From an uncultured Candidatus Binatia bacterium (GTDB lineage: Bacteria > Desulfobacterota > Binatia > UBA9968 > JAJDTQ01): DNA of 64,000 nucleotides. A program made the translations under genes and the position numbers. Shown here one piece after another: positions 22,597 to 41,118 of this stretch; the stretch's first letter is position 1; each line of letters begins with the position of its first letter. The stretch is taken from contig OZ219754.1 of assembly GCA_964291295.2 (NCBI GenBank), positions 2,912,001 through 2,976,000 of the forward strand. The letters are read 5' to 3'. The notes under the pieces were generated by a model. It saw only the letters and a list, made by a program, of their open reading frames with translations, was not told the DNA's origin and did not search any database.

Positions 22597-23484
22597 ATGC
22601 AGCAACAGACCCGGGCCTACCTGTACGCCGGCGCCACCGTGCTCTGCTGGTCCACCGCGGCGGCGGCGTTCAAGCTCTCCCTCCGCCACCTGGAACCCCA
22701 CCTTCTGGTGTTCTGTGCATCGGTGGTTTCCACCGCCGTGCTGTTCGGCATCACTGCGGCCACCGGCCGTCTCGGCCAGCTCCGGGAATGGCGCGCCGGC
22801 GACCTTGGCGTTTCCCTTGGCCTGGGTTTCCTGAACCCCTTCCTCTACTACCTCGTCCTCTTCACGGCCTACGAACTCCTGCCCGCTCAGACGGCACTGA
22901 CGCTCAATTTCACTTGGCCCATGGTGCTGGCGCTGTTCTCCATCCTCATGCTCCGGCAGCCCATCCGCGCCGGCGCCATCGGCGCCATGGCCATCAGCTT
23001 CTCCGGGATGGTCCTCATCGCCGCCCGGGGCGACCCGCCGGGACTCGACCTCGTCAACCCGCAGGGGGTGGCTCTGGCGCTCGGGAGCACCCTGGTATGG
23101 ACGCTGTACTGGATCTGCGGGGTCCGAGACGACCGCGACCCGGTGACCCGACTGCTGCTCAATTTCGCGTTCGGCTGCGTTTTCTCGGGCGGTTACCTGT
23201 GGCTTGCGGGCGGTCTGGAGACCGGTCTGGAGACACCGGGTGCGCCGGGCCTGGCGGGGGCGGCCCATATCGGCCTCTTCGAAATGGGCCTTGCGTACGT
23301 CACCTGGCTTCAGGCCCTGAAGCTCTCCCGCACCACCGCGCACGTGGCCCAGCTGATCTACCTGACACCCTTCCTCTCGCTGCTGGTGATCCGGCTGGTG
23401 GTGGGAGAGCCCATCCAGCCCGGCACCGTGGCGGGACTGGTGCTCATCGTCGGCGGTATCGCGCTGCAGCGGCGGACGGGCTGA
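22597..23484 (+). CDS. DMT/EamA family transporter
   Basis: About 10 hydrophobic segments, two EamA-like halves, YLTPFLS. Confidence 0.88.
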   Translation: MQQQTRAYLYAGATVLCWSTAAAAFKLSLRHLEPHLLVFCASVVSTAVLFGITAATGRLGQLREWRAGDLGVSLGLGFLNPFLYYLVLFTAYELLPAQTALTLNFTWPMVLALFSILMLRQPIRAGAIGAMAISFSGMVLIAARGDPPGLDLVNPQGVALALGSTLVWTLYWICGVRDDRDPVTRLLLNFAFGCVFSGGYLWLAGGLETGLETPGAPGLAGAAHIGLFEMGLAYVTWLQALKLSRTTAHVAQLIYLTPFLSLLVIRLVVGEPIQPGTVAGLVLIVGGIALQRRTG

Positions 23485-23561: not shown

Positions 23562-24929
23562 TCAGCCCGTCAGACGGCTCATGAGCCGACGCGCCCTTTC
23601 CACCGCGCCCGGCTCGATGGAAAGGGTCGCGGCGAAATCGCCCAGGGGCCGGGTGGCGTCGATGCCCATCTTCGCCGTAACGGCATCGGTGGCCGAGGGG
23701 TCCAGCAGCGTGCCCATGGCCTCGTCAACGATGAAAACGTCGCGGTCGGCCTGCATCCGGGTGGCCATGGCCCACAGCACCTGCTCTTCGTCGAATACAT
23801 CGATGTCCGCGTCCACCACCACCACCAGCTTGACGTAGTGGTCCGCCCCCAGCACGCTGAAGATGGCCTGCTTGGCCTGTCCTTCCGCGGTCTTTCTCAG
23901 GGAGACATAACAGTGGAAGCTGCCGATGCCCGACCGCACCGGCACGTGCACCGCCTTGAGATTGGGAATGGTCTTCCCCAGCACGTGGGTGAACTCCACT
24001 TCCCGGGGCATGGACAGGCAACGGCAGTGCTCCAGGCTGTCGCCGCCGTTGATATCCTGGTAGACGGCCCCGTTGCGGTAGTGCAACGCCGTGGCCTCGA
24101 ACACGTTCTCGGTGCTCCGGCTCGAGGCGTAGCCGGTGAACTCGCCGAACGGCCCCTCCTTCTCCCGCACGTCCTTGAGGATCCGCCCCTCGATGACGAC
24201 CTCCGACCACCGCGGCACGTCGACGTCCACGGTGGCACAGCGCGTCAACTCCAACGGTTCTCCCAGAAGCCCGCCCTGAAGCGCGAACTTCTCCGTTCCC
24301 GCCGGCGGCAGCGTCAATGCCCCCAGTGAGACCAGCGGGTGCACACCGATGCAGACCGCGGCCTCCAGGGACTCCCCCTTCTCCTCGGCGCGCCGGAAGT
24401 ACTCGAACATGCGCCGCCGGGAATGGAGGCTGACCCCCAGCTTGCGCGGCCCCTTGAGCTGCATTCGATGGAACCCCACCGTACGCATGCCGGACTGTGG
24501 ATCCCGCGCCACCACCAGCCCGGCGGTCACATAGGGGCCGCCGTCCTGCTCGAAATGGGTCAGCACCGGGAGTCGTCCCAAGTCCACCGATTCACCCAGC
24601 AGGGTGTTTTCCTGGAACGGGGCGTCTTTCAACACCGCGGGCCGCATGGGCTGCTGGATCCGCTCCCTGAACTCGTTCACCAGCCCTTCCTCCGGCGTGC
24701 CGAAGATCCAGGCCAGTCGCGGGCGGTGCGCCAGCACGTTGGCCGCCACGGTGAAGTCACTCCCGGTGATGTTCCGGAATATCACCACCGGACAGGACGG
24801 CAGCCGTTCAGCCTCCATCACCAGAGCAGTGGCCTCGAACTCCCGGGACACCGGCTCCCCGACTTCGAGCCACTGCTCCGGACACGCTTCCTTCAATCGC
24901 TTCAGGAAACCCTGCAGATCCTGTGGCAC
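23562..24929 (-). CDS. UbiD family prFMN-dependent (de)carboxylase
   Basis: GFHRMQ, EGPFGEFTGY, VVVDADIDVFD, WAMATR, KMGIDAT. Confidence 0.93.
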   Translation of the reverse strand: MPQDLQGFLKRLKEACPEQWLEVGEPVSREFEATALVMEAERLPSCPVVIFRNITGSDFTVAANVLAHRPRLAWIFGTPEEGLVNEFRERIQQPMRPAVLKDAPFQENTLLGESVDLGRLPVLTHFEQDGGPYVTAGLVVARDPQSGMRTVGFHRMQLKGPRKLGVSLHSRRRMFEYFRRAEEKGESLEAAVCIGVHPLVSLGALTLPPAGTEKFALQGGLLGEPLELTRCATVDVDVPRWSEVVIEGRILKDVREKEGPFGEFTGYASSRSTENVFEATALHYRNGAVYQDINGGDSLEHCRCLSMPREVEFTHVLGKTIPNLKAVHVPVRSGIGSFHCYVSLRKTAEGQAKQAIFSVLGADHYVKLVVVVDADIDVFDEEQVLWAMATRMQADRDVFIVDEAMGTLLDPSATDAVTAKMGIDATRPLGDFAATLSIEPGAVERARRLMSRLTG

Positions 24930-24947
24930 TCGATTCTCCTCGACGAG

Positions 24948-26177
24948 TCAGGTGAACCTCTCGGCCACCGCCTCGATGTTGCAGTCGAGAGGCTCGGGCG
25001 GATCGACGGCCCGCAGCGCGGCATCGACGTCCTTGAGGCCGTGGCCCGTGGACAGGACGACGACGCGCTCCGCCGGCGAGATGTCGCCCCGTTCCACGAG
25101 TCTCACCAGCGCGGCAACCGCGGCCGCTGCCGCGGGCTCGGCGAACAGGCCGGTGGTGCCGCCCAGAAGCCGCATGGCTTCCAGGATCTCGCCGTCCGAT
25201 ACGCTCACCGCGACCCCGCCGGAGGCCCGTAGATCCTGCACCGCCATGACCCCGTTGCGCGGCAACGCCACGCGGATGCTGTCGGCCAGGGTCTCCTCGG
25301 CGCCCGGCCGTATGGTCCCGTCGCCGTCGAAGGCCTGCTTGATGGCCTGCGAACCCTCGGCCTGGGCCGCCACCAGCCGCGGCAGCCGCGAGGTCCACCC
25401 CAGTCGTCGAAGGTCCGTGAAACCCTTCCAGACGCCGCTCAGGATACAGCCGTCGCCGGTGGCGACAATGACCGTGTCCGGCGGCTCCCAGCCCAACTGC
25501 TCGGCAATCTCCAGCGCCGCGGTCTTCTTGCCCTCCACGGTGTAGGGGTTGTAGCCGGTGTTGCGGTTGTACCACCGGAAGCGTTCGCCGGCCTCGACGC
25601 ACAGGCTGAAGGCGCGGGAATAGCTGCCGCGGATGGAAAGAACGTCCGCGCCGAAGATCAGGAGTTGCGCCACCTTGGCCCGGGGCGCGGTTTCGGGCAC
25701 GAAGATGTGACAGCGCAGCCCCAGGGCGGCCGAGAGGCAGGCCAGCGACGCGCCGGCGTTGCCGGTGGAGGCAGTGGCAAACTCCCGGCGGCCCAGTTCC
25801 ATCCCCTTGAGCAGCACCACGGAACTGGCCCGGTCCTTCAGGGAGGCGGAGGGGTTGGCGGTATCGTCCTTGATCCAGAGCCGTTCCAGACCCAGCGCCC
25901 GTCTCAGGCCTGGCACCGGGCACAGCGGCGTGGCTCCCACCGCCAGCGGGAACTCCACCGCGTCCGCCGCCAGCGGCAGCAACGGCAGGTAGCGCCAATG
26001 GTCCCGGAATGGCGCCGCGGCCAGCGCGCCGCGGCTCGCCGAAGCGCGCATCCGCTCGTAGTCGTAGGAAACCCTAAGAGTCCCCAACTCGCCGCAGGCC
26101 GGGCAACCGTACCGGTCCGGACCCTCCCGCCAGGCGGCGCCGCACAGGACGCAGGTCAGGTTTTCCGGCAGGGGCAT
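24948..26177 (-). CDS. Threonine synthase-like PLP enzyme with N-terminal Zn ribbon
   Basis: CxxC...CxxC, NPSASLKDR (PLP Lys), ASTGNAG, EGKKT, TGHGLKD. Confidence 0.85.
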   Translation of the reverse strand: MPLPENLTCVLCGAAWREGPDRYGCPACGELGTLRVSYDYERMRASASRGALAAAPFRDHWRYLPLLPLAADAVEFPLAVGATPLCPVPGLRRALGLERLWIKDDTANPSASLKDRASSVVLLKGMELGRREFATASTGNAGASLACLSAALGLRCHIFVPETAPRAKVAQLLIFGADVLSIRGSYSRAFSLCVEAGERFRWYNRNTGYNPYTVEGKKTAALEIAEQLGWEPPDTVIVATGDGCILSGVWKGFTDLRRLGWTSRLPRLVAAQAEGSQAIKQAFDGDGTIRPGAEETLADSIRVALPRNGVMAVQDLRASGGVAVSVSDGEILEAMRLLGGTTGLFAEPAAAAAVAALVRLVERGDISPAERVVVLSTGHGLKDVDAALRAVDPPEPLDCNIEAVAERFT

Positions 26178-26201
26178 CGCGGGGAGTGGCGGCGGGCCCG
26201 G

Positions 26202-27236
26202 CTACCGCACCACATGGAGGTTGCGGCGCGCCAGCCTGGCGCGGTCCTCCTCGCTCACGGGATGTGCGCGGTCGGGGATCTCCACGGCCGGCTCCCTGCC
26301 GAACAGCGGCGTGGAAAAGTAACGCATGCCGGTGTCGTTGATCAGGGTCACGATCATCTTCGTGGACGGCAACGCCGCCGACAGCCGGTTGGCTGCGGCA
26401 ACGTTGCAGCCCGACGAGATGCCGCACAGCACGCCTTCTTCGCGCGCCAGGCGCCGGGCCATGGCGATGGAGTCCTCCGACGAGACCGTCACCACCCCGT
26501 CGACCCAGTCCAGGTCCAGATTCTCCGGGATGAAACCGTCGCCGATGCCCTCGATGGCGTGCGGCCCCCAGGTTCCGCCCGACAGGATCGGACACTCGGC
26601 GGGCTCCACGGCGTAGACCTTCGCATTCGAGTTCCGCTCCTTGAGATACCGGCCGACGCCGGACACGGTACCGCCGCTGCCCTGGGAAGCCACGAACACG
26701 TCCACCTGGCCGCCGGTCTGCTGCCATATCTCCGGACCCGTGGTCTCGTAGTGCGCCGCGATGTTGTCCCGGTTGGAGAACTGGCCGGGCTCCCAGTAAC
26801 GATCCGGCTCGGCGCGCTTGAGTTCCTCCACCTTCTCCAGACACAAATCCACGTCGCTCTCCGCTCCCGGGGTCAGCACCAGTTCCGCGCCATAGGCGCG
26901 CATGGTGGCCTTGCGCTCCTCGCTCATGCCCTCGGGCATGACGATCACCACCGGATAGCCGCAAACCGCGCCGATCATGGCGGTGGCGATGCCGGTGCTG
27001 CCGGTGGAGGCCTCCAGGAGGGTCATGCCGGGCTTGAGATCGCCGCGCTCCTCCGCGCTTCGGACCATGCGGCGCAGGATCCGGTCCTTGAGACTCGACG
27101 AGGGGTTCATGAACTCGAGCTTGCCGCACAACGTCTGGGGTCCGGCCGCCACCTTGCGAAGCCGCAGCAGCGGCGTCAACCCCGCCGTCTCGGTGATGTC
27201 CTCCGCGATCCGTCCACGCGCGGCCCAATCCGTCAT
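26202..27236 (-). CDS. Cysteine synthase/cystathionine beta-synthase-like PLP enzyme
   Basis: KLEFMNPSSSLKDR, GSGGT, HAIEGIG, GISSG, DTGMRYFSTPLF. Confidence 0.87.
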   Translation of the reverse strand: MTDWAARGRIAEDITETAGLTPLLRLRKVAAGPQTLCGKLEFMNPSSSLKDRILRRMVRSAEERGDLKPGMTLLEASTGSTGIATAMIGAVCGYPVVIVMPEGMSEERKATMRAYGAELVLTPGAESDVDLCLEKVEELKRAEPDRYWEPGQFSNRDNIAAHYETTGPEIWQQTGGQVDVFVASQGSGGTVSGVGRYLKERNSNAKVYAVEPAECPILSGGTWGPHAIEGIGDGFIPENLDLDWVDGVVTVSSEDSIAMARRLAREEGVLCGISSGCNVAAANRLSAALPSTKMIVTLINDTGMRYFSTPLFGREPAVEIPDRAHPVSEEDRARLARRNLHVVR

Positions 27237-27271
27237 GGCTGTCCTCTCCGATCCGACACGAGGCCGCCCGG

Positions 27272-28144
27272 TCAAAGACCCAGCATGGCCCTGGGATTGT
27301 CGATGATGAGCTTCTCCACGTTCCTGGGCGAGACGCCCTTCTCGTAGAGGCCCTGGGCGTAGAGCCACAGCGCCTCCGGCGGCAAGGGGTTGTGAGACTG
27401 GCCGGTATCGCTCATGACCACGCAGTTGTCGAAGCCCATGGAGTCCATGATGCCCTTGGTGAACTCCAGGTTCACATAGGCCCACATGGGCGAGATGGTG
27501 CAGTAGCCGAACTCGCCGATGGCGCCGTAGCGCATCATCTGCTTCAGGAAATCGAGGTTCATGCCCGCGGGCACGCGAAAGTAGGGATGGGTGATCAGGA
27601 TCTTCCGGACCCCCCGCTCGTGGGCCGCCTTCACCAGCAGCTCGATCTCTCCCAGGGAGAGATGCGCGGTCCCCAGGATGGCGTCGTACTTGGCGATGAG
27701 TTCCAGCACCACCAGGGCCTCGTCCACCACCTTTCCGTCCTTGACCGCCGAGATGGGCTCCCCCCAGACGAAATCCGAACCGCTGGTCTGGGTGTCGTAG
27801 CTGCCCCGGGCGCCGTGGACCTCCACGTGGTGCGCCGCGTCGATGGTGGGCATCCAGATCTCCTTGGCTCCCAGCCGTAGCCCCACCTCGGCCGCCGCCG
27901 GATTGATGCCGCCCACGAACTGGTTCATCACCACGCCGCCGAAGACCTTGATGTCGGGAAACTCCTTCTGAATGAGCCAGGCGCGGCTGACCGTGCTCTC
28001 ATGGTGGCACTTCAGCACGATGGCCGCCATGCCCGCCTCCGCGGCCGCCTGCACGGCCTGACGGTCGTCCACCCGCCGCTGGAAAACGCAGGGATAGGAG
28101 TGGACGTGCAGGTCCACGGCACCGTCGAGTTTCATGAACTCCAT
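27272..28144 (-). CDS. DUF6282-like amidohydrolase/PHP-type metalloprotein
   Basis: DLHVHSYP, LKCHH, WMPT, GTAHLS, ITHP, SDTGQ, NPRAML. Confidence 0.75.
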   Translation of the reverse strand: MEFMKLDGAVDLHVHSYPCVFQRRVDDRQAVQAAAEAGMAAIVLKCHHESTVSRAWLIQKEFPDIKVFGGVVMNQFVGGINPAAAEVGLRLGAKEIWMPTIDAAHHVEVHGARGSYDTQTSGSDFVWGEPISAVKDGKVVDEALVVLELIAKYDAILGTAHLSLGEIELLVKAAHERGVRKILITHPYFRVPAGMNLDFLKQMMRYGAIGEFGYCTISPMWAYVNLEFTKGIMDSMGFDNCVVMSDTGQSHNPLPPEALWLYAQGLYEKGVSPRNVEKLIIDNPRAMLGL

Positions 28145-28164
28145 GGGTCTCCTCCAGCCTGCCT

Positions 28165-28854
28165 TCAGTCCATGCCCACCAGCCCCACGCCCAGCGCCCG
28201 CCCCACCGCTTCGAGGGCGGCCTCGTTGCTGGTCACGATGGGCAGGTCGTAGGCATCCTTCAGGCGCGGCAGCGCCGCCACCGCCTGATAGTTGGTGCAA
28301 GAGATGAACAGTGCATCCACCGGCGGTCTGGCGCCCAGCTTCTCGCGGGCGAAGGCCAGTATCTCCGGCGGTTCCACCAGCGCCAACTCGAAGTTGACGC
28401 GGATGCCCATGCCGTGGATCGCCACCACTTCGATGCCGCCCTCCTCCACGCTGGCCTTGATACGGCTGTTCAACTCCTCGACATAGGGCGTCACCACGGC
28501 CACACGCCGGACCTTCAGCGACGCCAGCCGGCGCCGCACCGACTCGATGACACTGAGGGTGGGTTTGCCGGCAACTTCCGAGATCCGGCGGCACAACTCG
28601 GCATCGCCGGCGTTGCCCCGGAGCGCGCCGGCGCTGGTGCAGCCGAACACCATCAAGTCCGGGCGGGCCGTGGCCACGTCGGCGGCCGCGGACAGGCAGT
28701 GATCGTCGAGCATGGCCTCCTCGCCCCGGACCGTGGTGGCCTCCATGTACATGCGGCCCGTATGGACCGTGACCGACGCCGGCAGGTGACGGTAGAAGTC
28801 CACTTCCATGACGGTGTTCGACGAAGGGATGAGCAATCCGATCCGATGACCCAA
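28165..28854 (-). CDS. Asp/Glu racemase family (maleate isomerase/arylmalonate decarboxylase-like)
   Basis: IGLLIPSSNTVME, GCTS, TPY, SCTN, TSN. Confidence 0.87.
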   Translation of the reverse strand: MGHRIGLLIPSSNTVMEVDFYRHLPASVTVHTGRMYMEATTVRGEEAMLDDHCLSAAADVATARPDLMVFGCTSAGALRGNAGDAELCRRISEVAGKPTLSVIESVRRRLASLKVRRVAVVTPYVEELNSRIKASVEEGGIEVVAIHGMGIRVNFELALVEPPEILAFAREKLGARPPVDALFISCTNYQAVAALPRLKDAYDLPIVTSNEAALEAVGRALGVGLVGMD

Positions 28855-28887
28855 TCCGTTACCTCCCTCTACGTCCCTCGCAGGGCG

Positions 28888-29901
28888 TCAGTCGTCATCG
28901 AACTCGCCCCGGGCCCTGGCCTCCTGGATGGCGAAGAAGACCCGCTCCGGGGTGATGGGCGTCTCGGTGATGCGGATGCCGATGGCGTCGTCGATGGCGT
29001 TCAGAATGGCCGGGGTGGTGGGGATCGTGGCGGGCTCGGCGACCCCCTTGGCGCCGAACGGCCCCCGGGGGTCCGGCACCTCCACGATCTCGCACTCGAT
29101 GTCCGGCACGTCCATGGCGGTGGGTACCAGATAGAACGCCAGCGACGACGTGCGCGGCACGCCGTTCTCCAGGATATGCTGCTCGTAGAGACCGTAGCCC
29201 AGGCCCATGGCGGCGCCGCCCTCGATCTGTCCTTCCACCGCCGCCGGGTTGATGGCCTTGCCCGCGTCCGTGGCCGAAACCAGCCTGACCAGACGCACGC
29301 GCCCGGTCTCGGTATCCACCTCCACCTCCGCCAACTGGGTTGCCCAGCCGTAGGTGGCGTAAGCGTCGCCCTGGGAAGTCTCCGGATCCACGTCGGCGGT
29401 GGTGTTGTCGTGCCAGCCCCAGGCCGCCGACCGCCGGCCGTGGAAATGGAGCTGCTGGGCCACCTTGCCCACCGACACCATGGGGCGGTCGCTGCCGACC
29501 TCGCACACCTCGCCGCGGCTCACGTGAAGGTTCTCCCTGGGACACTCCAGCATGCGCGAGGCCATGTCCAGGAGCTGCGCGCGCAGTTCCCCGGCCGCCC
29601 GCTGTACCGCCACCCCCTGCACGAAGGTGGCGCGGCTGCCCGAGGTGGGCCCGGCGTCCGGCGTGCTGCCGGTATCCGCCGCCACCACGCGAATCTGCTC
29701 CGGCTCGATGCCAAGCTCCTCCGCCGCCACCTGGGTCACCACGGTCATGACCCCCTGGCCCATGTCACAGGCCCCGGAGTAGATGGTGGTGGTGCCGTCC
29801 TCGGCCATCTCGATCTCGGCCGAGCCGATGTCGGCCCGGCTGAAGCCGTAGCCGATACCGTAATACATGGAGCCGATGCCCAGGCCTCTTCTTGTCGCCA
29901 T
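28888..29901 (-). CDS. Molybdenum hydroxylase Moco-binding medium subunit (NdhM-like)
   Basis: DMGQG, TSGSR, EGQIEGG, GAKGVAEP (catalytic Glu). Confidence 0.9.
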   Translation of the reverse strand: MATRRGLGIGSMYYGIGYGFSRADIGSAEIEMAEDGTTTIYSGACDMGQGVMTVVTQVAAEELGIEPEQIRVVAADTGSTPDAGPTSGSRATFVQGVAVQRAAGELRAQLLDMASRMLECPRENLHVSRGEVCEVGSDRPMVSVGKVAQQLHFHGRRSAAWGWHDNTTADVDPETSQGDAYATYGWATQLAEVEVDTETGRVRLVRLVSATDAGKAINPAAVEGQIEGGAAMGLGYGLYEQHILENGVPRTSSLAFYLVPTAMDVPDIECEIVEVPDPRGPFGAKGVAEPATIPTTPAILNAIDDAIGIRITETPITPERVFFAIQEARARGEFDDD

Positions 29902-29920
29902 GATCGCCCGGCCGCGCCCT

Positions 29921-31234
29921 TCAGGAGGCGGCCCGAGCCCGCCTGAACCGCAGGTCATGTGCGTCCATGTAGTCCTCGATGCGCCGCAGCGTCGCTTCGA
30001 TGCCGCAGCCTTCGTTCATCAACTGTCCGGTGGAGGAAGCCAGCCCCGGCCTGAGGCAGTTCTTCAAGCGGAACTCCAGCGGCGACATGCCCAGCCGGTG
30101 GGCCAGCTGGTCCATCTGGGACTCGTGGGCCACGGCCGCCTGCATCACCCCGAAGCCGCGCATGGCCCCGGAGACCAGATTGTTGGTGTAGAGCGTATAG
30201 GTGTCCACCCGGATGTTCGGCACTTCGTAGGGACCGGTGGCGTGGATGCCCGCCTTCTTGACCACGTAGGCGCCCAGCGAAACCCCCGCGCCCGTGTCGC
30301 CGTAGATGTCGCCGTCCAGGAAGGCCAGCCGGCCGTCGGCGCGGGCGCCGGTGCGGAAGTTCATGGCCATGGGGTGGCGCTTGGTGTTGGCGACGAGGGA
30401 CTCCTCGCGGCTGTAGACCAGGCGCACCGGCCGGTGCGTCCTGAGCGCCAGCAGGCCGGCGTGGATCTCCACGGTGATGTCGTCCTTGCGGCCGAAGCCG
30501 CCGCCGATGGGTGCCTGGATCACCCGGACCCTGTTCATGGCAAGGCCCAGGGCCGGCGCGATCTGGCGGCGGTCCCGGTACGGGTACTGGGTGCCCGCCA
30601 GGATGTGCAGCACGCCGGAGGGATCCACATGGGCCAGTCCCGCCTCCGGCTCCATGGGAACGTGATCCATGCGATGGGTGTGGTAGGTGTTCTCCACGAC
30701 CACGTCCGCCTCCCGCATGCCCCGCTCCAGATCACCCTTGCGCACGGTGGTGTGCTGGAACACGTTGCCGCCCTCGTGGATCGAAGGCGCCGTCCGGTCC
30801 AGGGCATCCGCGTAGGTGAGAATCGGCCGCAGCGGCTCCAGGTCCACCTTGATCTTCGCCAGCGCCTCCTCGGCCGCTTCTTCGTCCTCCGCCGCCACCA
30901 GGGCCAGGGCATCGCCCGCCGACCGCACCTTGTCGTCCGCCAGCACCTGCTGGTCGAGCACGGCCAGTCCGTAGCGGTTGGTGCCGGGCACGTCCGCGGC
31001 CGTGAGCACGGCGGCCACACCGGGCGTCCGGGCGGCCTCCCTGGTGTCGATGTGGCGGATCACCGCGTGGGGCGTACCCGCCCACAGGATCCGGGCGTGG
31101 AGCATGCCCGGCACCACCATGTCGCCCACGTACTCGGTGGCGCCCAACGCCTTCTCCAGCGCGTCGGGCCTGGTGACGTTCCTGCCGATCCAGTGATGCG
31201 GGCGGTCCGCCGCCCCGGAAGTCCCCTGGCTCAT
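29921..31234 (-). CDS. Molybdenum hydroxylase Moco-binding large subunit (NdhL-like)
   Basis: TQYP, GGGFGRK, KRHP, GAMRGFG; start MSQGT at 31234. Confidence 0.9.
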   Translation of the reverse strand: MSQGTSGAADRPHHWIGRNVTRPDALEKALGATEYVGDMVVPGMLHARILWAGTPHAVIRHIDTREAARTPGVAAVLTAADVPGTNRYGLAVLDQQVLADDKVRSAGDALALVAAEDEEAAEEALAKIKVDLEPLRPILTYADALDRTAPSIHEGGNVFQHTTVRKGDLERGMREADVVVENTYHTHRMDHVPMEPEAGLAHVDPSGVLHILAGTQYPYRDRRQIAPALGLAMNRVRVIQAPIGGGFGRKDDITVEIHAGLLALRTHRPVRLVYSREESLVANTKRHPMAMNFRTGARADGRLAFLDGDIYGDTGAGVSLGAYVVKKAGIHATGPYEVPNIRVDTYTLYTNNLVSGAMRGFGVMQAAVAHESQMDQLAHRLGMSPLEFRLKNCLRPGLASSTGQLMNEGCGIEATLRRIEDYMDAHDLRFRRARAAS

Positions 31235-31710
31235 CTCCCCTCGCTCGTGATCTCTTCGGCGGCCGCGCGCACGGCCTTGACGATCTTGCCGTATCCCGTG
31301 CAACGGCATAGGTTCCCGGAGATGGCGAAACGGATCTCGTCGTCCGTGGGGTCGGGGTTGTCGCGCAGCAGCGCCCAGGCGCTCATGATCATCCCCGGCG
31401 TGCAGTAACCGCACTGTATGCCGCCCTGCGCCACCATCTGCCGCTGCAAGGGATGGGGCCGGCCCTCTTCGGCCAAGGCTTCGATGGTCACCACCTCCCG
31501 GTCCACCGCGTCGGGAAACAGCACCAGGCAGGACACCACCGGCCGGCCGTCGAGGAGAACCGTGCACGACCCGCACTCGGCCTCGTTGCAGCCCTTCTTG
31601 CTGCCGGTCAGACGAAGGTTGTCGCGCAGTACGTCCAGCAGGGACTGATGGGGTTCGGCTTCGGTTTCCCGGACGCCGCCGTTCACCCGCAGACGGTAGC
31701 GCCGCTTCAT
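31231..31710 (-). CDS. Molybdenum hydroxylase 2Fe-2S subunit
   Basis: GCNEAECGSCTV, QCGYCTPG, GNLCRCTGY. Confidence 0.95.
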   Translation of the reverse strand: MKRRYRLRVNGGVRETEAEPHQSLLDVLRDNLRLTGSKKGCNEAECGSCTVLLDGRPVVSCLVLFPDAVDREVVTIEALAEEGRPHPLQRQMVAQGGIQCGYCTPGMIMSAWALLRDNPDPTDDEIRFAISGNLCRCTGYGKIVKAVRAAAEEITSEGR

Positions 31711-32600
31711 GCCGTCGCCGCCCGCCCGTCCGCCCGGGCCCTTTCCACCGCCTGTCGCAGCACGCGCCGCACCAGTATCCGCGCCAGCTCCCTGCGGTAG
31801 GCCGCCGACCCGCGAATGTCATCGATGGGGCAACACGCTTCCATCGCCGCGGTCCCGGCCCACTCCAGGCGTTCCGGGCTCGGCTCCCTGTCCAGCACCA
31901 GCTCCTCCGCCTTCAGAGCCCGAATGGGCGTGGGCGCCACCGCGCCCAGGGCGATGCGCACCGCCCTCACCCTTTCCCGGGCCGAATCCAGCGTCACGGA
32001 GGCGGCGGCGCTGGCTATGGCGATGTCCATGGCCGACCGCGGCGTGAACCGCTCGAAGGCATCGCCGGTGAACGGTTCCGGTTCCGGCACCTCCACCGCC
32101 AGGAGCAACCCGCCGGCACCCAGCACCGACGCCCCCGGACCTTGAAAAAAGTTCTCCACCGATACGGTCTCCCGTCGGGATTCATGGCCCCACAGGGTTA
32201 TCGTGGCCCCCAGCGCCATGAGCGGCGGCGCCGTATCCGCCGACGGCGAAGCATTGCACAGGTTGCCGCCGACGCTGGCCATGTTCCTCAACTGCGGCGA
32301 ACCCACCACCCGGAGCGCCTCGCGGATCGAGGGAAAGCGCCGGCCCACGGCCGCGGACGTTTCCAGATCCCGCATGGGCGTGCAGGCCCTCACCTGGAGC
32401 CCCTTGCCGGGCGCGCATTCCCAGCCCGAAAGCCCCGGTATCCGTTTCAGATTCACCAGCCCCTCGGCGCGGACCACCCGACGGCGCAACTGTATGACGA
32501 TATCCGTACCGCCGGCAAGCGCCCGGCGCGCGCCTTTTCCCTCCCGCAACAACTCGCTCGCTTCCCGCAGGGAGGTGGGCTCGAAATAGTCAAAGCGCAT
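31707..32600 (-). CDS. Molybdenum hydroxylase FAD-binding subunit
   Basis: YFEPTSL, AGGTD, RNMASVGGNLCNASPSAD, PIDDIRGSAAYR. Confidence 0.94.
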   Translation of the reverse strand: MRFDYFEPTSLREASELLREGKGARRALAGGTDIVIQLRRRVVRAEGLVNLKRIPGLSGWECAPGKGLQVRACTPMRDLETSAAVGRRFPSIREALRVVGSPQLRNMASVGGNLCNASPSADTAPPLMALGATITLWGHESRRETVSVENFFQGPGASVLGAGGLLLAVEVPEPEPFTGDAFERFTPRSAMDIAIASAAASVTLDSARERVRAVRIALGAVAPTPIRALKAEELVLDREPSPERLEWAGTAAMEACCPIDDIRGSAAYRRELARILVRRVLRQAVERARADGRAATA

Positions 32601-32631
32601 GCGTGGTGCTTCCGTTCGACCCGGCTCCGGT

Positions 32632-33573
32632 TCAGGTCAGCCTGGGAATTACCTCCGAGGCGATCATCTCCAACTGCTCGAACTGGTAGCGGTAGGGGAT
32701 CAGGATGATCCGGTGCACACCCGCGTCGACATGGGCCTGGAGCTGCTCCACGCACTGGTCCGCGGTGCCCCGAATCGCGTGCTCGATGGTCGAGTCGCTC
32801 CACTTGGCGATGTCCCATTCGGTGGAGAGCCAGTGCCGCATGGGTCCGTCCGCCGCTTCCCTGGAGGGACCCACGTAAATGGCCAACTGGTTGGTGGCGG
32901 TGAGCTTCGACGGGTCGCGTCCGGCCTCGTCCGCCGCCGCCAGGACCTTGGCCCAGCTCCTGGCGAAACCCTCGGGCGTATAGAAGTAGGTCAGCCAGCC
33001 GTCTCCCTTCCGCCCCGCCCGGCGCAGCACCCGATCGATGTAGCCGCCGATGAGGATGGGCGGATGGGGCTTCTGAATCGGCTTGGGCAGCAGCACCGCC
33101 GAGCGCAGGTCCAATTCGTCCACCTGCGTGGTCACCCGATCCTCGGTCCACAGCCGCACCAGCAGATCCAGATTGCGCTCGAAGATGCGGCCCCGGTCCT
33201 TGAAGGAGATGCCGACGGCATCGAACTCCCGGGCGTACCAGCCGGAGGCGACCCCCAGCAGCAGGCGTCCGTTGGAGATCCGGTCCAGACTGCCCAGCAC
33301 CTTCGCCGCCACCACCGGGTTGCGCAACGGCAGCACCATCACGCCGGTCCCCAGCCGGATGCTCCGGGTGCGCGCCGCAATGGCGGTGAGAACGGTCAAG
33401 GAGTCCAGCACCGGGAAGCTCGGGTCGACCCCCAGAAGGATATGGTCCCAGGCCCAGAGGGACTCGAAACCCAGCTCCTCGGCGCGCCGGGAATAACCTA
33501 TCAAACCGTCCACGTCCGGTGTCTCCCCCGGACCGACGAAATTGCGAATGGCGACTCCAAAACGTACCGACAT
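32632..33573 (-). CDS. LLM-class (luciferase-like) flavin/F420-dependent oxidoreductase
   Basis: AEELGFESLWAWDH, LGTGV, RNPVVAAK, PPILIGG. Confidence 0.9.
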   Translation of the reverse strand: MSVRFGVAIRNFVGPGETPDVDGLIGYSRRAEELGFESLWAWDHILLGVDPSFPVLDSLTVLTAIAARTRSIRLGTGVMVLPLRNPVVAAKVLGSLDRISNGRLLLGVASGWYAREFDAVGISFKDRGRIFERNLDLLVRLWTEDRVTTQVDELDLRSAVLLPKPIQKPHPPILIGGYIDRVLRRAGRKGDGWLTYFYTPEGFARSWAKVLAAADEAGRDPSKLTATNQLAIYVGPSREAADGPMRHWLSTEWDIAKWSDSTIEHAIRGTADQCVEQLQAHVDAGVHRIILIPYRYQFEQLEMIASEVIPRLT

Positions 33574-33593
33574 TTATCCAGGCCCCTCAGGTT

Positions 33594-34367
33594 TCACGCA
33601 CGGCCCTGACCCAGAAAACTCCTCTCCGGGTCGATGCTCCGCAAAGTTTCCAACTCTTCCTCGCTGGGCGGCTCGGTGACCGTCGGGCGATCGGGCACGG
33701 ACAATTCGAACCCGGTGTTGTCCAGCACCTGCTGCACGGTGACGCCCGGGTTGAGGCTCTCCAGCCGCAGCCGGCGCGTCTCGTCGTCGAACACCAGCGT
33801 GCCCAGGTGGGTCACGATACGGCTGACGGTGCCGAACAGGAGCCCCGCCTCGCGGCGGGCATCTCCGCCCGACAGGAATCCCGGACTGGTGACGAAGTCC
33901 ACCCGCGGCACGAATCGGCGCCGTTCGTGCATGGTCACCACCATGACCCTGCGGCACAGCGAGATGATGTCGTTGGCCCCGCCGCTGCCCGGCAGACGGA
34001 CCTTGGGCCGCTGATAGCTGCCGATGACACTGGAGTTGAGGTTGCCATGACAGTCGATCTGCGCGCCGCCGACGAAACCCACATCAAGGAAACCCCGCTG
34101 GGCGAACAGGAACGTGTCGGTGATGCCCGGCAGCATCTGCGCCCGGGGCGCGGTACGCATCTCGTTGGTGGAGTATGGCAACCGGCCCGGAACCATCCTG
34201 GGACCCAGGCTGCCCCCCTCCACCACGATGACGAGCTGAGGGGCGCGGGTCTTCTGCGCCAGCACGGCGGACACCAGCGGCACGCCCACGCCGGCGAACA
34301 CCGAGGTCACGCCCGCAAGCTGGCGGGAAGCGATCACCGCCAGAAGCTCGGTGGCCGAGCAGTTCAT
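33594..34367 (-). CDS. Family I CoA-transferase beta subunit (glutaconate CoA-transferase-like)
   Basis: VVEGG (catalytic Glu region), GGAQIDCHGNLN, LPGSGGANDI, VDFVTSPG. Confidence 0.88.
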   Translation of the reverse strand: MNCSATELLAVIASRQLAGVTSVFAGVGVPLVSAVLAQKTRAPQLVIVVEGGSLGPRMVPGRLPYSTNEMRTAPRAQMLPGITDTFLFAQRGFLDVGFVGGAQIDCHGNLNSSVIGSYQRPKVRLPGSGGANDIISLCRRVMVVTMHERRRFVPRVDFVTSPGFLSGGDARREAGLLFGTVSRIVTHLGTLVFDDETRRLRLESLNPGVTVQQVLDNTGFELSVPDRPTVTEPPSEEELETLRSIDPERSFLGQGRA

Positions 34368-35320
34368 CCCGGCCCCAGCAATTCCTCGGCACAGCGTCGC
34401 TGCCGCGCCAGCGCCTCTTCGCCGAACAGCGCCAGGTAGGCCTCGTGACCCGGAACACCGTAGACGTAGCGGTCGAGATAGTCGTGGATGGCGCCGGTAC
34501 CGCGCGCCCTGACGGCGTCGGTGTAGGCCTCGAAATGGGCGAAGTCGGCTTCGTACAAGCCGTAGCACTCGTGCGGGAAGGAGCCGTAGGGCGTCTCCAC
34601 CACCGCATCCACCACCAGTCCCGGAATCACCGTGCGGTCCGGCCGGCGGCGAACCTCCTCCTCGGCAATGATCTCCTCGGCGGTGACGATGACCGTGGCG
34701 GCGGCCTTGGCGATATCCGCGTCCATGTGCGGATAGCCGTCGATCTGGCAGTTGCCGAAACGGTCGGCCCGATGCACGTGGATCAGCGCCACCTCGGGGA
34801 ACAGGGCCGGCACGAGACAAAGGGTCTCTCCCGTGAACGGGCATTTCATGGTCCGGGTGTCGGTGACCTCCATGAGGTCCGAACCCAGCATGGTCAGGGT
34901 GGGCAGGAACGGGATGCCCATGGCACCGGCCCGGTAACGGAGTCCGAGCCCCAGATGGCTCCACTCCTCGAACCGGATGCGCCCTCCTTCCACCTCTTCG
35001 CGAAGCTTGAGGGAAAGCCCCCAAGGGAGCGCGATGTCGAACCAGCTCGTCATCAGCGCGTCCACGGCCTTGGCGGCCATGAACAACTCGCCCTCGTAGC
35101 ACATGAGGTTCCGGGAAAGGGTCAGGCCGCGTCTTTGCTGGCGCAACACCTCCATCAGCGCAGCCAGCGGGCTGCGCGAGAAGAGACATCCGCCGATGGC
35201 GATGTGGTCGCCGTCCCGAACCCGCCCAACGGCTTGCTCCAGGGTCGTGAGCTTCTCACCGGTGTACTGGGGCTTGGCCTCAAGCCGGCGGCGCGCCTCG
35301 ACGAAATCGGCGGATTTCAT
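34364..35320 (-). CDS. Family I CoA-transferase alpha subunit
   Basis: IAIGG, AGAMGIPFLP, ALIHVHRADRFGN, PYGSFP. Confidence 0.88.
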   Translation of the reverse strand: MKSADFVEARRRLEAKPQYTGEKLTTLEQAVGRVRDGDHIAIGGCLFSRSPLAALMEVLRQQRRGLTLSRNLMCYEGELFMAAKAVDALMTSWFDIALPWGLSLKLREEVEGGRIRFEEWSHLGLGLRYRAGAMGIPFLPTLTMLGSDLMEVTDTRTMKCPFTGETLCLVPALFPEVALIHVHRADRFGNCQIDGYPHMDADIAKAAATVIVTAEEIIAEEEVRRRPDRTVIPGLVVDAVVETPYGSFPHECYGLYEADFAHFEAYTDAVRARGTGAIHDYLDRYVYGVPGHEAYLALFGEEALARQRRCAEELLGPG

Positions 35321-39239: not shown

Positions 39240-40679
39240 TCAACCCGCGCCGTTGCCGTTGAACAGTACCTTGCCCCACTTCCTGGCCGTGGCGTCGAGC
39301 ACCTCCGGACTGGACTCCGCCACCGGCGGGAACTCGCTCATCCACTCGTAGGGACGGCACGCGTCGATGATGGCGCGGGAGTTGAAGCCCTTCTTCGTGG
39401 GGTGCACGATGGGGTCGAGGGGGCCGCTCCAGGCGCGCCGGATGATGTCGATGTCGCCATCCGGATCAGAGCGCGTCGCCAGGGCCCAGATCACGTCATC
39501 GGTGTTGGAGGGGTCAATGTCGTCGTCCACGACAATGACGTAGCGGCCGAGGTAGGCGCCCGCGTGGCACTGGGAAGCCACCACCGCGGCCTGGCGCGCG
39601 TGTCCCGGGTAGCGCTGCTTGATGGAGACCACCATGACCAGACGGCTGCCGCCAGCCACCATCAGCCAGACACCCCTGACATCGGGAACGCCGGCTTTCT
39701 CCATCTCGTCCCAGATGAGCGCCGAACGCAGGTACGACCGGTACCAGCCGAGCTCGGCCGGCGGCCTTCCCGGAGGCGAGCCGAGGATGATGGGGTCGTT
39801 CCGATGGTACAGGCGCTTGATCTTCACGATGGGCTCGTTCCGCTCCGCGCTGGCATAGTAGCCGGTCCACTCGCCGAACGGGCCCTCGACACGATCCTCG
39901 CCGAAGATCACGTCGCCCTCCACCACGATCTCGGCATTGGCCGGAACCATCAACCCGGAGTACGGCGCCTTGACCACCTCCAGGGGCTCTCCGCGAATAC
40001 CCCCCAGGAAGTCGTACTCGGGCACGCCGTAGGGCACCTCGATGCTTCCGCCCAGGAAGACCAGCGGGTCATGCCCGAAGGACATGGCCATCTTGAAGGA
40101 CTCGCCGGTCTGCTGGTACTTGTCCCGGTGGATCCGGCCGTGCTTGCCCGGAGAGATGTAGAAGCCCACGGTGTCGGAATCGTGGACCATGACCCGATAC
40201 GTGCCCCAGTTGGTCCAGCCTTCGTCCCGGTCCGCGGTGATGTCGATGCTGCCGGTGCCGATGTAGCGGCCGCCGTCCCGCTCGTGCCAGCGGGGCGTGG
40301 GGAACTTGAGCAGATCAATGTCGCCCTCTTCGAAAACGTTCTCGAACAGCGGGCCGTCCTTCAGCACCTTGGCGGGGACAGGCTTGATCTTCCTGTAATG
40401 CTCGCGCCACGTGTTGACGAACTCCATCTTGCTGTCGCCCGGGGGCAGGTTCAGAGTCAAGCCGATACGCTTCCGCGAACTCAGCGAGTTGGACAGGACG
40501 CGGTAGCCCTTGGGGTGGTCCTTGATCTCGTCGAACAGCACCGCGGGGCCGTCTTCCCTGCGCATCACCATCTCGGTAATGGCGCCGATCTCAAGATCCC
40601 AGTCGCAGCCCCTCAGGGTCTTGAGCTCCCCCATCGCATTCGCCTTGTCGATCCACTCGCGGCAATCATTGAATTCCAT
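39240..40679 (-). CDS. UbiD family prFMN-dependent (de)carboxylase
   Basis: DGGRYIGTG, WGTYR, EGPFGEWTGYY, VDDDIDP, WALATR. Confidence 0.93.
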   Translation of the reverse strand: MEFNDCREWIDKANAMGELKTLRGCDWDLEIGAITEMVMRREDGPAVLFDEIKDHPKGYRVLSNSLSSRKRIGLTLNLPPGDSKMEFVNTWREHYRKIKPVPAKVLKDGPLFENVFEEGDIDLLKFPTPRWHERDGGRYIGTGSIDITADRDEGWTNWGTYRVMVHDSDTVGFYISPGKHGRIHRDKYQQTGESFKMAMSFGHDPLVFLGGSIEVPYGVPEYDFLGGIRGEPLEVVKAPYSGLMVPANAEIVVEGDVIFGEDRVEGPFGEWTGYYASAERNEPIVKIKRLYHRNDPIILGSPPGRPPAELGWYRSYLRSALIWDEMEKAGVPDVRGVWLMVAGGSRLVMVVSIKQRYPGHARQAAVVASQCHAGAYLGRYVIVVDDDIDPSNTDDVIWALATRSDPDGDIDIIRRAWSGPLDPIVHPTKKGFNSRAIIDACRPYEWMSEFPPVAESSPEVLDATARKWGKVLFNGNGAG

Positions 40680-40728
40680 CGTTACCTCCGCTCGGTATGC
40701 ATTCCATCTGCCGTGCTTTCGGGACGTG

Positions 40729-41118
40729 TCAGGTCTTCTGGTACATGCCTCGCCCCATGCGCCTGATCCGGCCATCCTTGGACCACCGTACCACTACCTG
40801 CCGGAGATAGGCCCTGGGCTTCTCGCTCGCCGTCTTGTTGGCGCCCACGGTGTCGAGAGTGAACTCCTTCGGCAAGGTGTCGAAAATCGCGTTCCAGTCG
40901 ATCATGGCGCCGCGAGGCCCCCGTCTCTGCACCTGTCCGGAGCGGGCGGGCCGGCCGCGCCGGCGGCGCGGTTCTCGACCTCCATCCAGCATGTCGTAGA
41001 TGATCTCATGCCGCTTGATATCGTCCCGGAGCGTGGCCACCCGCGCGGTGGCCGCCGCCAGTTCCTTCTTCAACAGATCGATCTGCTGCCTGACACTTAC
41101 CTTCAGAGCCAAGGCCAT
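40729..41118 (-). CDS. Small basic putative DNA-binding protein (coiled coil + AT-hook + winged-helix-like C-terminus)
   Basis: Strong SD AAGGAGG; heptad N-terminus; RRRRGRPAR; C-terminal GRIRRMGRGMY. Confidence 0.7.
   Translation of the reverse strand: MALALKVSVRQQIDLLKKELAAATARVATLRDDIKRHEIIYDMLDGGREPRRRRGRPARSGQVQRRGPRGAMIDWNAIFDTLPKEFTLDTVGANKTASEKPRAYLRQVVVRWSKDGRIRRMGRGMYQKT

Follow-up and report, generated by a model that had tools for sequence, protein, structure and literature searches.

The window analysed here is a stretch of 64,000 nucleotides from an uncultured Candidatus Binatia bacterium (assembly GCA_964291295.2, contig OZ219754.1, positions 2,912,001 to 2,976,000 of the forward strand), and the system in question is an operon of twelve genes packed on its minus strand at positions 23562-35320. 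The operon probably serves the breakdown of an N-heteroaromatic carboxylic acid without the use of oxygen; the ring would be hydroxylated, reduced, and then hydrolysed. We give this reading a probability of roughly 0.6. The scheme seems to follow the logic of the nicotinate fermentation of Eubacterium barkeri and of the gut purine pathway, and the chemistry of the enzyme families points to an N-heterocyclic carboxylate as the class of substrate.

The genes were located from the list of open reading frames together with inspection of start codons and ribosome-binding sites. From the first gene to the last, and including the convergent gene downstream, they are as follows.

34364..35320, minus strand: coenzyme A (CoA)-transferase alpha subunit (ctfA; GctA-like), Pfam CoA_trans; first gene of the operon, with AAGAGGA upstream of its ATG
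33594..34367, minus strand: CoA-transferase beta subunit (ctfB; GctB-like), Pfam CoA_trans; its start overlaps the ctfA stop by 4 nucleotides
32632..33573, minus strand: luciferase-like (LLM) oxidoreductase of an F420-dependent subfamily, Pfam Bac_luciferase and TIGR03619
31707..32600, minus strand: FAD subunit F of the molybdenum (Mo) hydroxylase, 297 amino acids, Pfam FAD_binding_5 and CO_deh_flav_C
31231..31710, minus strand: [2Fe-2S] subunit S of the Mo-hydroxylase, 159 amino acids, Pfam Fer2 and Fer2_2; 4-nucleotide overlap on each side
29921..31234, minus strand: Mo-hydroxylase L (N-terminal half of the large subunit), 437 amino acids, Pfam Ald_Xan_dh_C and MoCoBD_1
28888..29901, minus strand: Mo-hydroxylase M (C-terminal half of the large subunit), 337 amino acids, Pfam MoCoBD_2
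28165..28854, minus strand: two-cysteine racemase/isomerase of the Asp/Glu-racemase superfamily, Pfam Amdase; TTG start
27272..28144, minus strand: DUF6282 predicted metal-dependent hydrolase, the proposed ring opener, Pfam DUF6282 at 220.5 bits
26202..27236, minus strand: CysK-family pyridoxal phosphate (PLP) enzyme, TIGR01139 at 358.9 bits
24948..26177, minus strand: threonine-synthase-family (ThrC-like) PLP enzyme with an N-terminal Cys-rich segment, Pfam PALP
23562..24929, minus strand: UbiD-family decarboxylase of the prenylated-flavin (prFMN) type, HmfF-like, Pfam UbiD_N, UbiD, and UbiD_C; last gene of the operon
22597..23484, plus strand: EamA/DMT transporter, convergent, Pfam EamA

The junctions from ctfA to the UbiD gene measure -4, 20, 31, -4, -4, 19, 33, 20, 35, 24, and 18 nucleotides; in other words, there are three 4-nucleotide overlaps, and the largest intergenic gap is 35 nucleotides. 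An earlier note on this DNA had described twelve co-oriented, tightly spaced genes facing a convergent EamA gene. Both statements were confirmed at the place given, the stop codons of the UbiD and EamA genes being 77 nucleotides apart, and Pfam matched 13 of 13 proteins to the families named beforehand. Since the spacing is tight and the gene order is syntenic in related genomes, we infer that the twelve genes are co-transcribed. The EamA protein is a possible carrier of the substrate or the product.

Both halves of the Mo-binding subunit find their best solved match in the nicotinate dehydrogenase (Ndh) of E. barkeri. L matches 3HRD_A (NdhL) at 374.4 bits, the next solved chain being at 205, and M matches 3HRD_B (NdhM) at 239.7 bits, the next being at 174.8. 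The division of the Mo-binding subunit into L and M, as in the E. barkeri enzyme (L of about 425 and M of about 330 amino acids), is present as well; the available text of PMC10331938 describes that enzyme with four Ndh subunits. The Gln and Glu motifs of the active site are retained; in M, the motif around the catalytic Glu reads FGAKGVAEP. Positions of the substrate pocket were mapped via alignments to bovine xanthine oxidase, and three of them, which we take to be specificity setters by analogy with that enzyme, differ from Ndh. The site of bovine Glu802 is Asp in the window and Leu in Ndh; that of Arg880 is Lys in the window and Arg in Ndh; that of Phe1009 is Tyr in the window (Tyr or Phe in the cluster family) and Asn in Ndh. 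Furthermore, the N-terminal motif of M, YGIGYGFSRAD, is unlike that of NdhM, the GF-S-R-A-D stretch (GF-x-R-x-D) being missing from Ndh. The cluster family, with enzymes from Binatia, Chloroflexota, and Bacillota, keeps K-D-D, V-x-K-K, and G-[YF]-G-F-x-R-x-D. The Actinomycetota Mo-hydroxylase is fused and more distantly related, and it has Glu at the first (Glu802) site. The Mo-hydroxylase is therefore much nearer to NdhL and NdhM than the earlier note implied, yet with a different pocket. A selenium-dependent Mo-hydroxylase was considered and set aside, because the marker of such enzymes, yqeB (TIGR03309), was not found in the 99.13% complete host genome, in a search for the yqeB member of the selenium-cofactor maturation trait YqeB/YqeC.

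The DUF6282 protein has no NCBIfam model, its sequence matched no solved chain, enamidase included, and the literature search returned no paper with the word DUF6282. Its AlphaFold model (pLDDT 93.0) is a (beta/alpha)8 barrel of eight strand-helix units. The Foldseek matches of this model are lactonases and dihydroorotases of the amidohydrolase superfamily, with E values from 7e-8 to 2e-6 and TM scores of about 0.6; the top match is a putative 2-pyrone-4,6-dicarboxylate hydrolase, followed by lactonases. None of the residues H13, H15, H161, H186, and D246 varies among the 25 sequences compared. This agrees with the amidohydrolase superfamily, in whose barrels an HxH motif follows strand 1, a His follows each of strands 5 and 6, and an Asp follows strand 8. 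On the basis of this model, DUF6282 is predicted to be a metal-dependent TIM-barrel enzyme of the amidohydrolase fold.

The neighbouring racemase/isomerase retains both cysteines to which the earlier note had drawn attention: Cys72 (GCTS) is kept in 43 of 46 aligned homologs and Cys186 (SCTN) in 44. Its similarity to arylmalonate decarboxylase (56 bits) and maleate isomerase (54.7 bits) is low, and it reaches 86.7 bits on NF052327 against a cut-off of 225. Arylmalonate decarboxylase proper has a single catalytic Cys, the first Cys of the racemase pair being replaced. Because both cysteines are conserved, an Amdase-type decarboxylase was ruled out, and the gene product seems to be a two-thiol racemase or cis-trans isomerase.

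The best solved relative of ctfA is glutaconate CoA-transferase (1POI_A, 143.1 bits), and ctfB is likewise nearest to this enzyme (1POI_B, 141.9 bits). The Glu in VIVVEGG of ctfB is aligned with the Glu in IIVESG of GctB, which is presumably the catalytic residue. The pair has the features of the class I glutaconate type, namely alpha and beta subunits and a retained beta Glu. A decarboxylase or ring hydrolase, as suggested by the solved relatives 5MZW and 6CO6, is less likely, because the Glu is retained and because class III CoA-transferases or an AMP-ligase take the place of the pair elsewhere. The LLM scores 205.7 bits on TIGR03619 (cut-off 166.9), and a cofD gene is found in the host genome (315.3 bits, cut-off 257.45); the LLM is predicted to use F420.

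The UbiD protein has all three UbiD domains, and its best solved match is 6H6V at 299.1 bits, E. coli UbiD being at 164.9 bits. The 6H6V structure is P. thermopropionicum HmfF, a furan-2,5-dicarboxylate decarboxylase (PMC8988006). The ubiX gene is not in the operon and is found elsewhere in the host genome (232.7 bits). These features place the protein in the HmfF-like branch. A second UbiD gene is located in the window itself at 39240-40775.

Both PLP enzymes belong to families that also have housekeeping members. The CysK-like protein is slightly over the cut-off of TIGR01139 for cysteine synthase A (358.9 against 350.95 bits), and another genomic copy reaches 435.8. The CysK-like gene accompanies DUF6282 in Chloroflexota at 69-78% identity. 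The ThrC-like protein reaches 287.1 bits on NF006050, below the cut-off of 303. The host genome has five other ThrC-family paralogs, of which one scores 285.9 on TIGR00260 (183.9 for the operon copy) and another 558.6 on NF006050. In a tree, the cluster-linked ThrCs of Binatota, Chloroflexota, and Bacillota group together (support 94/98, 15 rows), apart from the five host paralogs. On these grounds, a housekeeping ThrC was rejected, and a housekeeping CysK is considered unlikely. Since better copies are found elsewhere in the genome and the ThrCs form a separate group in the tree, both enzymes appear to be extra paralogs dedicated to the cluster.

Other ThrC paralogs of the host are found in gene rows of their own. 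At C1:2323687-2327600 (L078:7687-11577), a ThiF-like, a ThrC-like, a ThiS-like, and a CysM-like gene form a row, in which the ThrC paralog is the best TIGR00260 scorer mentioned above; this row presumably resembles those for sulfur-carrier-protein-dependent synthesis of cysteine or homocysteine. Further ThrC paralogs are in catabolic-looking rows (L079:5219-12458 and L080:7165-12469). One is accompanied by a PrpF-family isomerase, a polysaccharide-deacetylase-family protein, a UbiD, and an AMP-ligase, and another by an M24 peptidase resembling creatinase and ectoine hydrolase, two LLMs, and a TRAP transporter. In the host lineage, ThrC-like enzymes may serve catabolism more widely. It should be mentioned that the host genome is rich in catabolic paralogs: tblastn (E up to 1e-8, at least 50% query coverage) located 27 places for UbiD, 28 for the Mo-hydroxylase large subunit, at least 52 for Amidohydro_2, 24 for LLM, and 17 for the ornithine-cyclodeaminase family.

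For the comparison of gene content, 77 loci around DUF6282 relatives were collected, 24 from the same genus and 53 from outside it, with flanks of 10 kb; these flanks and contig ends limit the counts, genes were called with a simple picker of open reading frames, and neighbouring families were annotated in part. The 24 same-genus loci are kin and were counted as one lineage. A DUF6282 ortholog with 95-98% identity is present in 26 of the 27 other genomes of the genus, and none was found in 33 genomes from other genera of the order. Among 300 sampled other genomes of the phylum, only four gave matches, at 39-54% identity. All twelve genes occur in identical order in 18 of the 24 same-genus loci. 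The exceptions have simple descriptions: in L008, L013, and L029 the last one or two genes lie outside the stored stretch because of a contig end or an insertion, L003 and L007 carry an integrase-bearing insertion in the operon, and L005 carries a 4-kb insertion. Co-conservation of the genes, the absence of which the earlier note had named in advance as a refuting point, therefore holds, and the arrangement is far beyond chance.

The window contains the shortest form of the operon seen. Most same-genus loci (L001-L040) carry one to four genes beyond UbiD, so that their operons have 13-16 genes. This tail module consists of a second UbiD, an Amidohydro_2 protein, an ornithine-cyclodeaminase/mu-crystallin enzyme, and an aminohydrolase of the chlorohydrolase family (567.3 bits, cut-off 416), and intermediate tails with only one or two of these genes are found in L005, L007, L011, and L017. 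The module is absent from the operon of the window, and the best matches elsewhere in the host genome are only 33-53% identical.

Several of the same-genus loci contain insertions. In a sponge-associated member of the genus (L029:9296-16680), CysK is separated from ThrC by an insert with a LysR regulator, a D-glutamate-cyclase-family gene, TRAP DctP and DctM, and a large Ig-domain protein; in L006 and L010, an Ig-domain protein alone occupies this position. A tyrosine-recombinase integrase is in the expected place of ctfAB at L003:2726-4012. Another integrase lies directly upstream of DUF6282 at L007:8695-9900, a locus whose 10-kb flank contains none of the eight upstream genes.

The 53 outside loci come from Chloroflexota, Bacillota, Actinomycetota, and a few other metagenome-assembled genomes (MAGs). 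Of these, 31 are well flanked, keeping at least 5 kb on each side of DUF6282, and their contents are as follows.

Racemase: 26 of 31
Mo-hydroxylase L or M subunit: 25 of 31
Racemase together with Mo-hydroxylase L or M: 23 of 31
ThrC-like gene: 11 of 31
ctfA, ctfB, and LLM: 9 of 31

Over all 53 loci, ctfAB with LLM was counted in 12, ThrC in 16, CysK in 13, and UbiD in 7. The core shared across phyla consists of the Mo-hydroxylase, the two-cysteine racemase/isomerase, a reductase, and DUF6282, and the CoA-transferase with LLM, the CysK/ThrC pair, and UbiD are accessory modules, present in some loci and absent from others.

The identity of the reductase varies. A PreA-like enzyme with a DHO_dh domain and 4Fe-4S clusters (300.5 bits on NF006183, under the cut-off of 335) is near DUF6282 in 11 loci, Bacillota among them. 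In the scanned loci L036, L045, and L051, its gene is directly upstream of DUF6282, and in the latter two it follows the racemase. In two Chloroflexota loci (L037 and L041), an SdhA-like flavoprotein and a small Fe-S subunit (Fer2_3) fill the slot between the racemase and DUF6282; the same SdhAB-like pair is nearby in L031-L033, L054, and L073. The LLM always occurs with the CoA-transferase pair, in the Binatia genus, Dehalococcoidia, and Actinomycetota. Our reading is that one redox step has undergone non-orthologous replacement by three unrelated families (LLM, PreA-like, and SdhAB-like). The CoA-activation step also looks conserved, because loci without the Gct-like pair have class III CoA-transferases (L031) or an AMP-ligase (L036) in its stead. 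We read these replacements as surrounding a fixed trio of Mo-hydroxylase, racemase, and DUF6282. In one MAG (L025:2716-5368), a GrdB-like and GrdE/G-like pair, resembling component B of glycine, sarcosine, betaine, or D-proline reductase, is directly upstream of the Mo-hydroxylase genes, in the usual position of the CoA-transferase and LLM.

PucR-type regulators are beside the cluster in L045, L050, L051, and L053. The adjoining transporters vary (ABC, TRAP, NCS1, and lactate-permease types), the NCS1 permease of the cytosine/uracil/allantoin type being next to the cluster in L053. DUF6282 of the Binatia genus is 80-83% identical to that of Dehalococcoidia or Anaerolineae, and in L020 (770-4300) a tRNA-Sec, an integrase, and an IS1595 transposase lie ahead of the cluster. 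These two observations point to horizontal spread of the cluster.

Based on these assignments, the following order of steps can be proposed. The HmfF-like UbiD would act as an accessory feeder, stripping one carboxyl group from a dicarboxylated precursor. The Mo-hydroxylase FSLM would then add a water-derived oxygen adjacent to the ring nitrogen to give a lactam, and a reductase would saturate a C=C bond of the ring; the candidate here is the F420-type LLM, and elsewhere the PreA-like or SdhAB-like enzyme. DUF6282 would open the lactam. The two-cysteine enzyme might racemise the new stereocentre alpha to the carboxylate, or convert a cis-enedioate to the trans form. Nitrogen would be taken off the amino-acid intermediate by the ThrC-like and CysK-like PLP enzymes, and the resulting C5/C6 dicarboxylate might be activated by the glutaconate-CoA-transferase-like pair for metabolism of the beta-oxidation type.

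Within this scheme, our tentative preference as to the substrate is for pyridine-2-carboxylates, i.e. picolinate, or dipicolinate entering through UbiD, and they are weakly favoured above nicotinate or pyrimidine acids. The preference comes from the fact that opening of such a ring to an alpha-amino/alpha-oxo dicarboxylate would account for the presence of the racemase, the PLP enzymes, and the Gct-like transferase. Further hints are that the UbiD resembles a decarboxylase acting beside the heteroatom of a symmetric dicarboxylate, that the 13-16-gene variants add an ornithine-cyclodeaminase/mu-crystallin enzyme, that the insert in the L029 operon includes a D-glutamate-cyclase-family gene and a TRAP transporter, and that no decarbamoylase family is among the annotated recurrent neighbours. 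In its fullest and more speculative form, which we consider doubtful, the operon would be the missing oxygen-independent pyridine-2-carboxylate route: dipicolinate would be converted to picolinate by UbiD, picolinate to 6-hydroxypicolinate by the Mo-hydroxylase, and this to a ring-opened 2-amino/2-oxo C6 dicarboxylate by the reductase and DUF6282. Further processing of the latter compound would fall to the racemase, the PLP enzymes, and the Gct-like CoA-transferase.

Several points weigh against the hydroxylate-reduce-hydrolyse scheme. Every step in it is assigned by analogy. Because the pocket residues differ from those of E. barkeri Ndh, even the type of ring that would be hydroxylated may be another. 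The weakest link is the LLM. Characterised F420-dependent LLMs mostly act on alcohols, C=O, or C=N, not on ring C=C bonds; ring reduction may therefore not be the task of the LLM of the operon, in which case the Binatia version would lack a ring reductase. In addition, the LLM co-varies with the CoA-transferase and is not placed in the reductase slot, and it may instead be a dehydrogenase of the lower pathway. The scheme also leaves the role of CysK unexplained. Among the well-flanked outside loci, the racemase is lacking in 5 of 31 and the Mo subunits in 6 of 31, and the same-genus loci, being kin, amount to one lineage. Finally, the acidic residue at the Glu802 site, the PreA-like reductase, and the NCS1 permeases fit a pyrimidine-type ring equally well.

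Among the rival explanations, two are the least improbable. One of them is a nicotinate or 6-hydroxynicotinate pathway, a variant of the route of E. barkeri or Azorhizobium caulinodans, in which DUF6282 would stand in for enamidase and the LLM for 6-hydroxynicotinate reductase, and the CoA-transferase would activate glutarate or a 2-substituted glutarate. The far greater closeness of L and M to NdhL and NdhM than to other solved Mo-hydroxylases, together with the rare L/M split, speaks for this pathway, as does the CoA-transferase, whose nearest relative is glutaconate CoA-transferase; the Azorhizobium nicotinate route has a glutarate branch, which matches a transferase of this type. However, the three pocket positions and the GF-x-R-x-D motif that differ from Ndh are conserved in the cluster family, and the families of the B12 mutase, PrpF-type isomerase, aconitase-type dehydratase, and lyase are all absent from the operon. 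Ammonia is released spontaneously in such a pathway, so that two PLP enzymes and an amino-acid-type racemase would be left without a role, and yqeB was not found in the host genome, which is 99% complete. On balance, we regard nicotinate as an improbable substrate.

The other is degradation of a diazine (a pyrimidine carboxylate of the orotate or iso-orotate type, or another oxo-pyrimidine) by an extended reductive pyrimidine pathway, composed of the Mo-hydroxylase, a PreA-like reductase, DUF6282 as a dihydropyrimidinase- or dihydroorotase-like enzyme, and a hydantoin-type racemase. The reductase of the Bacillota loci is PreA-like, falling just short of its cut-off, dihydroorotases are among the Foldseek matches of DUF6282, the residue at the bovine Glu802 site is acidic, and PucR regulators and, in L053, an NCS1 permease flank the cluster. 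On the other hand, a pyrimidine ring needs a decarbamoylase, carbamoyltransferase, or ureidopropionase, and none is recurrent among the annotated neighbours; there is no PreT beside the PreA-like gene, and C3/C4 products offer no evident task for a CoA-transferase of the glutaconate type. The tail module of the genus adds a chlorohydrolase/aminohydrolase-family enzyme and an Amidohydro_2 protein, which would suit a diazine, but this module is absent from the operon of the window. A diazine thus seems an unlikely substrate.

A still more doubtful reading is that the genes do not form one pathway and that one transcription unit in this genus combines three modules unrelated to one another: the CoA-transferase and LLM; the Mo-hydroxylase, racemase, and DUF6282; and CysK, ThrC, and UbiD. 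The varying combinations in the outside loci, as counted above for CtfAB with LLM, ThrC, and UbiD, would be explained in this way, and mobile elements or foreign genes have been inserted between operon genes with the rest kept (L003, L005, L007, and L029). Nevertheless, every module adjoins DUF6282 in more than one phylum, the ThrCs linked to the cluster in Binatota, Chloroflexota, and Bacillota form a group that excludes the five host paralogs, and the housekeeping role is covered by better-scoring CysK and ThrC copies elsewhere in the genome. The spacing of at most 35 nucleotides, with its three 4-nucleotide overlaps, suggests that expression of the genes is coupled.

Degradation of a heterocycle with oxygen or sulfur (furan- or thiophene-carboxylates, with DUF6282 as a lactonase or thiolactonase and CysK capturing released sulfide) is highly improbable. 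In its favour, UbiD is nearest to HmfF, the top Foldseek matches of DUF6282 are the putative pyrone hydrolase and lactonases, CysK is just over the cysteine synthase A cut-off, and the furoate pathway combines a CoA step with a Mo-hydroxylase and a UbiD enzyme. Against it, the closest relative of the Mo-hydroxylase here acts on an N-heterocycle, nitrogen compounds are indicated by the PucR regulators and by transporters of the NCS1 or amino-acid type, the racemase and ThrC-like enzymes would have no role on furan or thiophene products, and only 7 of 53 outside loci have UbiD and 13 have CysK.

The upstream neighbours of the operon are miaA and mutL, and genes of aromatic amino acid biosynthesis are downstream. 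The guanine-plus-cytosine content is even along the operon, with no composition anomaly, and the host genome has a size of 3.70 Mb. An EamA gene with 68-76% identity is convergent downstream in 9 of 24 same-genus loci and was not found within the 10-kb flank in the remaining 15. A scan for consensus promoters and terminators gave one promoter-like and five terminator-like sites, no more than in shuffled sequence. In a search for a riboswitch as a clue to the ligand, no Rfam family reached the threshold in the whole window, nor did any match with E up to 1 turn up in a stretch of 251 bases spanning the operon start; a scan of 15 related loci with Rfam gave the tRNA-Sec of L020 as the single match.

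If the N-heteroaromatic acid route is real, the operon represents an uncharacterised pathway spread over several phyla, and the logic of the E. barkeri and gut purine pathways would extend to soil, groundwater, and sponge-associated bacteria. The context of the operon provides the first testable role for DUF6282, that of a ring-opening hydrolase in a pathway initiated by a Mo-hydroxylase. Picolinate, dipicolinate, nicotinate, and pyrimidine acids, as the candidate substrates, arise widely from the breakdown of cofactors and spores, and dipicolinate is the main small molecule of bacterial spores. According to the accessible part of PMC11472048, the dipicolinate pool is large and its fate little known. 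Should the pyridine-2-carboxylate route be true, decarboxylation of dipicolinate would be the native activity of HmfF-type enzymes in spore-forming Bacillota, and lactam hydrolysis would be the first function assigned to DUF6282. Cultured carriers of the cluster, named in their records as Moorella naiadis AZ13.I (L054), Moorellaceae bacterium AZ2 (L045), and Syntrophaceticus schinkii Sp3 (L043), give access at the bench.

As for known systems, the earlier note did not recognise the combination as the nic, E. barkeri, or purine pathway, and it had named a match to a characterised pathway as its other refuting point; in the literature search and the family scans, no characterised pathway was matched. 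The literature search, which left most subscription journals out of its reach, returned no description of this gene combination. No such cluster appeared among the papers on 6-hydroxynicotinate reductase or enamidase, judged by title and abstract, no paper pairing F420 with 6-hydroxynicotinate was found, and the literature on dipicolinate, isonicotinate, and pyridine-dicarboxylate/UbiD gave no match.

The aerobic nic pathway consists of NicAB, NicC, NicX, NicD, NicF, and NicE. By Pfam, none of its families (NicC flavin monooxygenase, NicX Fe(II) dioxygenase, deformylase, and maleamate amidase) is in the operon, and the sole resemblance is the weak one of the racemase to maleate isomerase (54.7 bits). 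Reductive pyrimidine catabolism proceeds through the PreA/PreT dihydropyrimidine dehydrogenase, dihydropyrimidinase, and beta-ureidopropionase, and orotate fermentation is known from clostridia. The Bacillota loci are similar to it in that a PreA-like reductase is placed beside an amidohydrolase-fold ring opener and a hydantoin-type racemase. They differ in lacking PreT and a decarbamoylase and in having a Mo-hydroxylase; the window has no PreA-like gene, and an F420-type LLM and a CoA-transferase are present instead.

The furfural/hydroxymethylfurfural (HMF) pathway of Cupriavidus basilensis comprises the HmfABC Mo-hydroxylase, the HmfD CoA ligase, HmfE, the HmfF UbiD, and the HmfG UbiX. In this pathway, and in the lumazine cluster of Cupriavidus sp. 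LA-1 as far as the available text of PMC12391406 describes it, a Mo-hydroxylase and a prFMN-dependent UbiD act on a heteroaromatic acid, as would be the case here. However, DUF6282, the racemase, the PLP enzymes, and an F420-type LLM do not appear in either route, the lumazine one again as covered in that text, and the isomerase of the lumazine route is of the amidase-signature family (PMC12391406, same portion). The aerobic dip cluster of Alcaligenes faecalis JQ135 is alike only in its substrate, a pyridine dicarboxylate, which is one candidate here. In the accessible part of PMC11472048, this cluster starts with the O2-dependent monooxygenase DipD, does not need molybdenum cofactor genes, and has a GntR repressor; its gene content, as given there, is unrelated to that of the operon.

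The 2,8-dioxopurine pathway of gut anaerobes is closer in its logic. In the part of the report that was available (10.1101/2025.04.24.650524), it has a Mo-hydroxylase nearest to the selenium-dependent nicotinate dehydrogenases, a ring reductase, and ring-opening amidohydrolases, and a fold-type II PLP enzyme, YgeX, finally frees ammonia. The oxygen-independent succession of hydroxylase, reductase, hydrolase, and PLP enzyme would thus be common to both, going by that part of the report. By the same account, its reductase YgfK and its hydrolases SsnA and HyuA are of wholly different families. The operon here lacks the carbamoyltransferase, carbamate kinase, and M20 amidase named there, whereas a racemase, DUF6282, UbiD, and a CoA-transferase do not figure in the purine pathway as described in that portion.

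With the E. barkeri cluster, the operon shares the four-subunit Mo-hydroxylase with its L/M split, for both halves of which the E. barkeri enzyme is the best solved match. The order of the chemistry would also be shared, i.e. hydroxylation next to nitrogen, reduction, and opening of the lactam by a metal hydrolase. The nicotinate fermentation described by Alhapel et al. in 2006 reportedly comprises NdhFSLM, 6-hydroxynicotinate reductase, enamidase, and a B12-dependent lower pathway. The lower set consists of 2-(hydroxymethyl)glutarate dehydrogenase and dehydratase, the B12 mutase, methylitaconate isomerase, and dimethylmalate dehydratase and lyase; neither enamidase nor any of these families is among the Pfam matches of the twelve genes. 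In contrast to E. barkeri, the pocket differs at three positions, the hydrolase is DUF6282, the reductase is of another family, and no yqeB was found in the host genome. A racemase, CysK, ThrC, UbiD, and a Gct-like CoA-transferase are added. The gene set is a variant within a known type of pathway, with DUF6282 as a component family of no described function.

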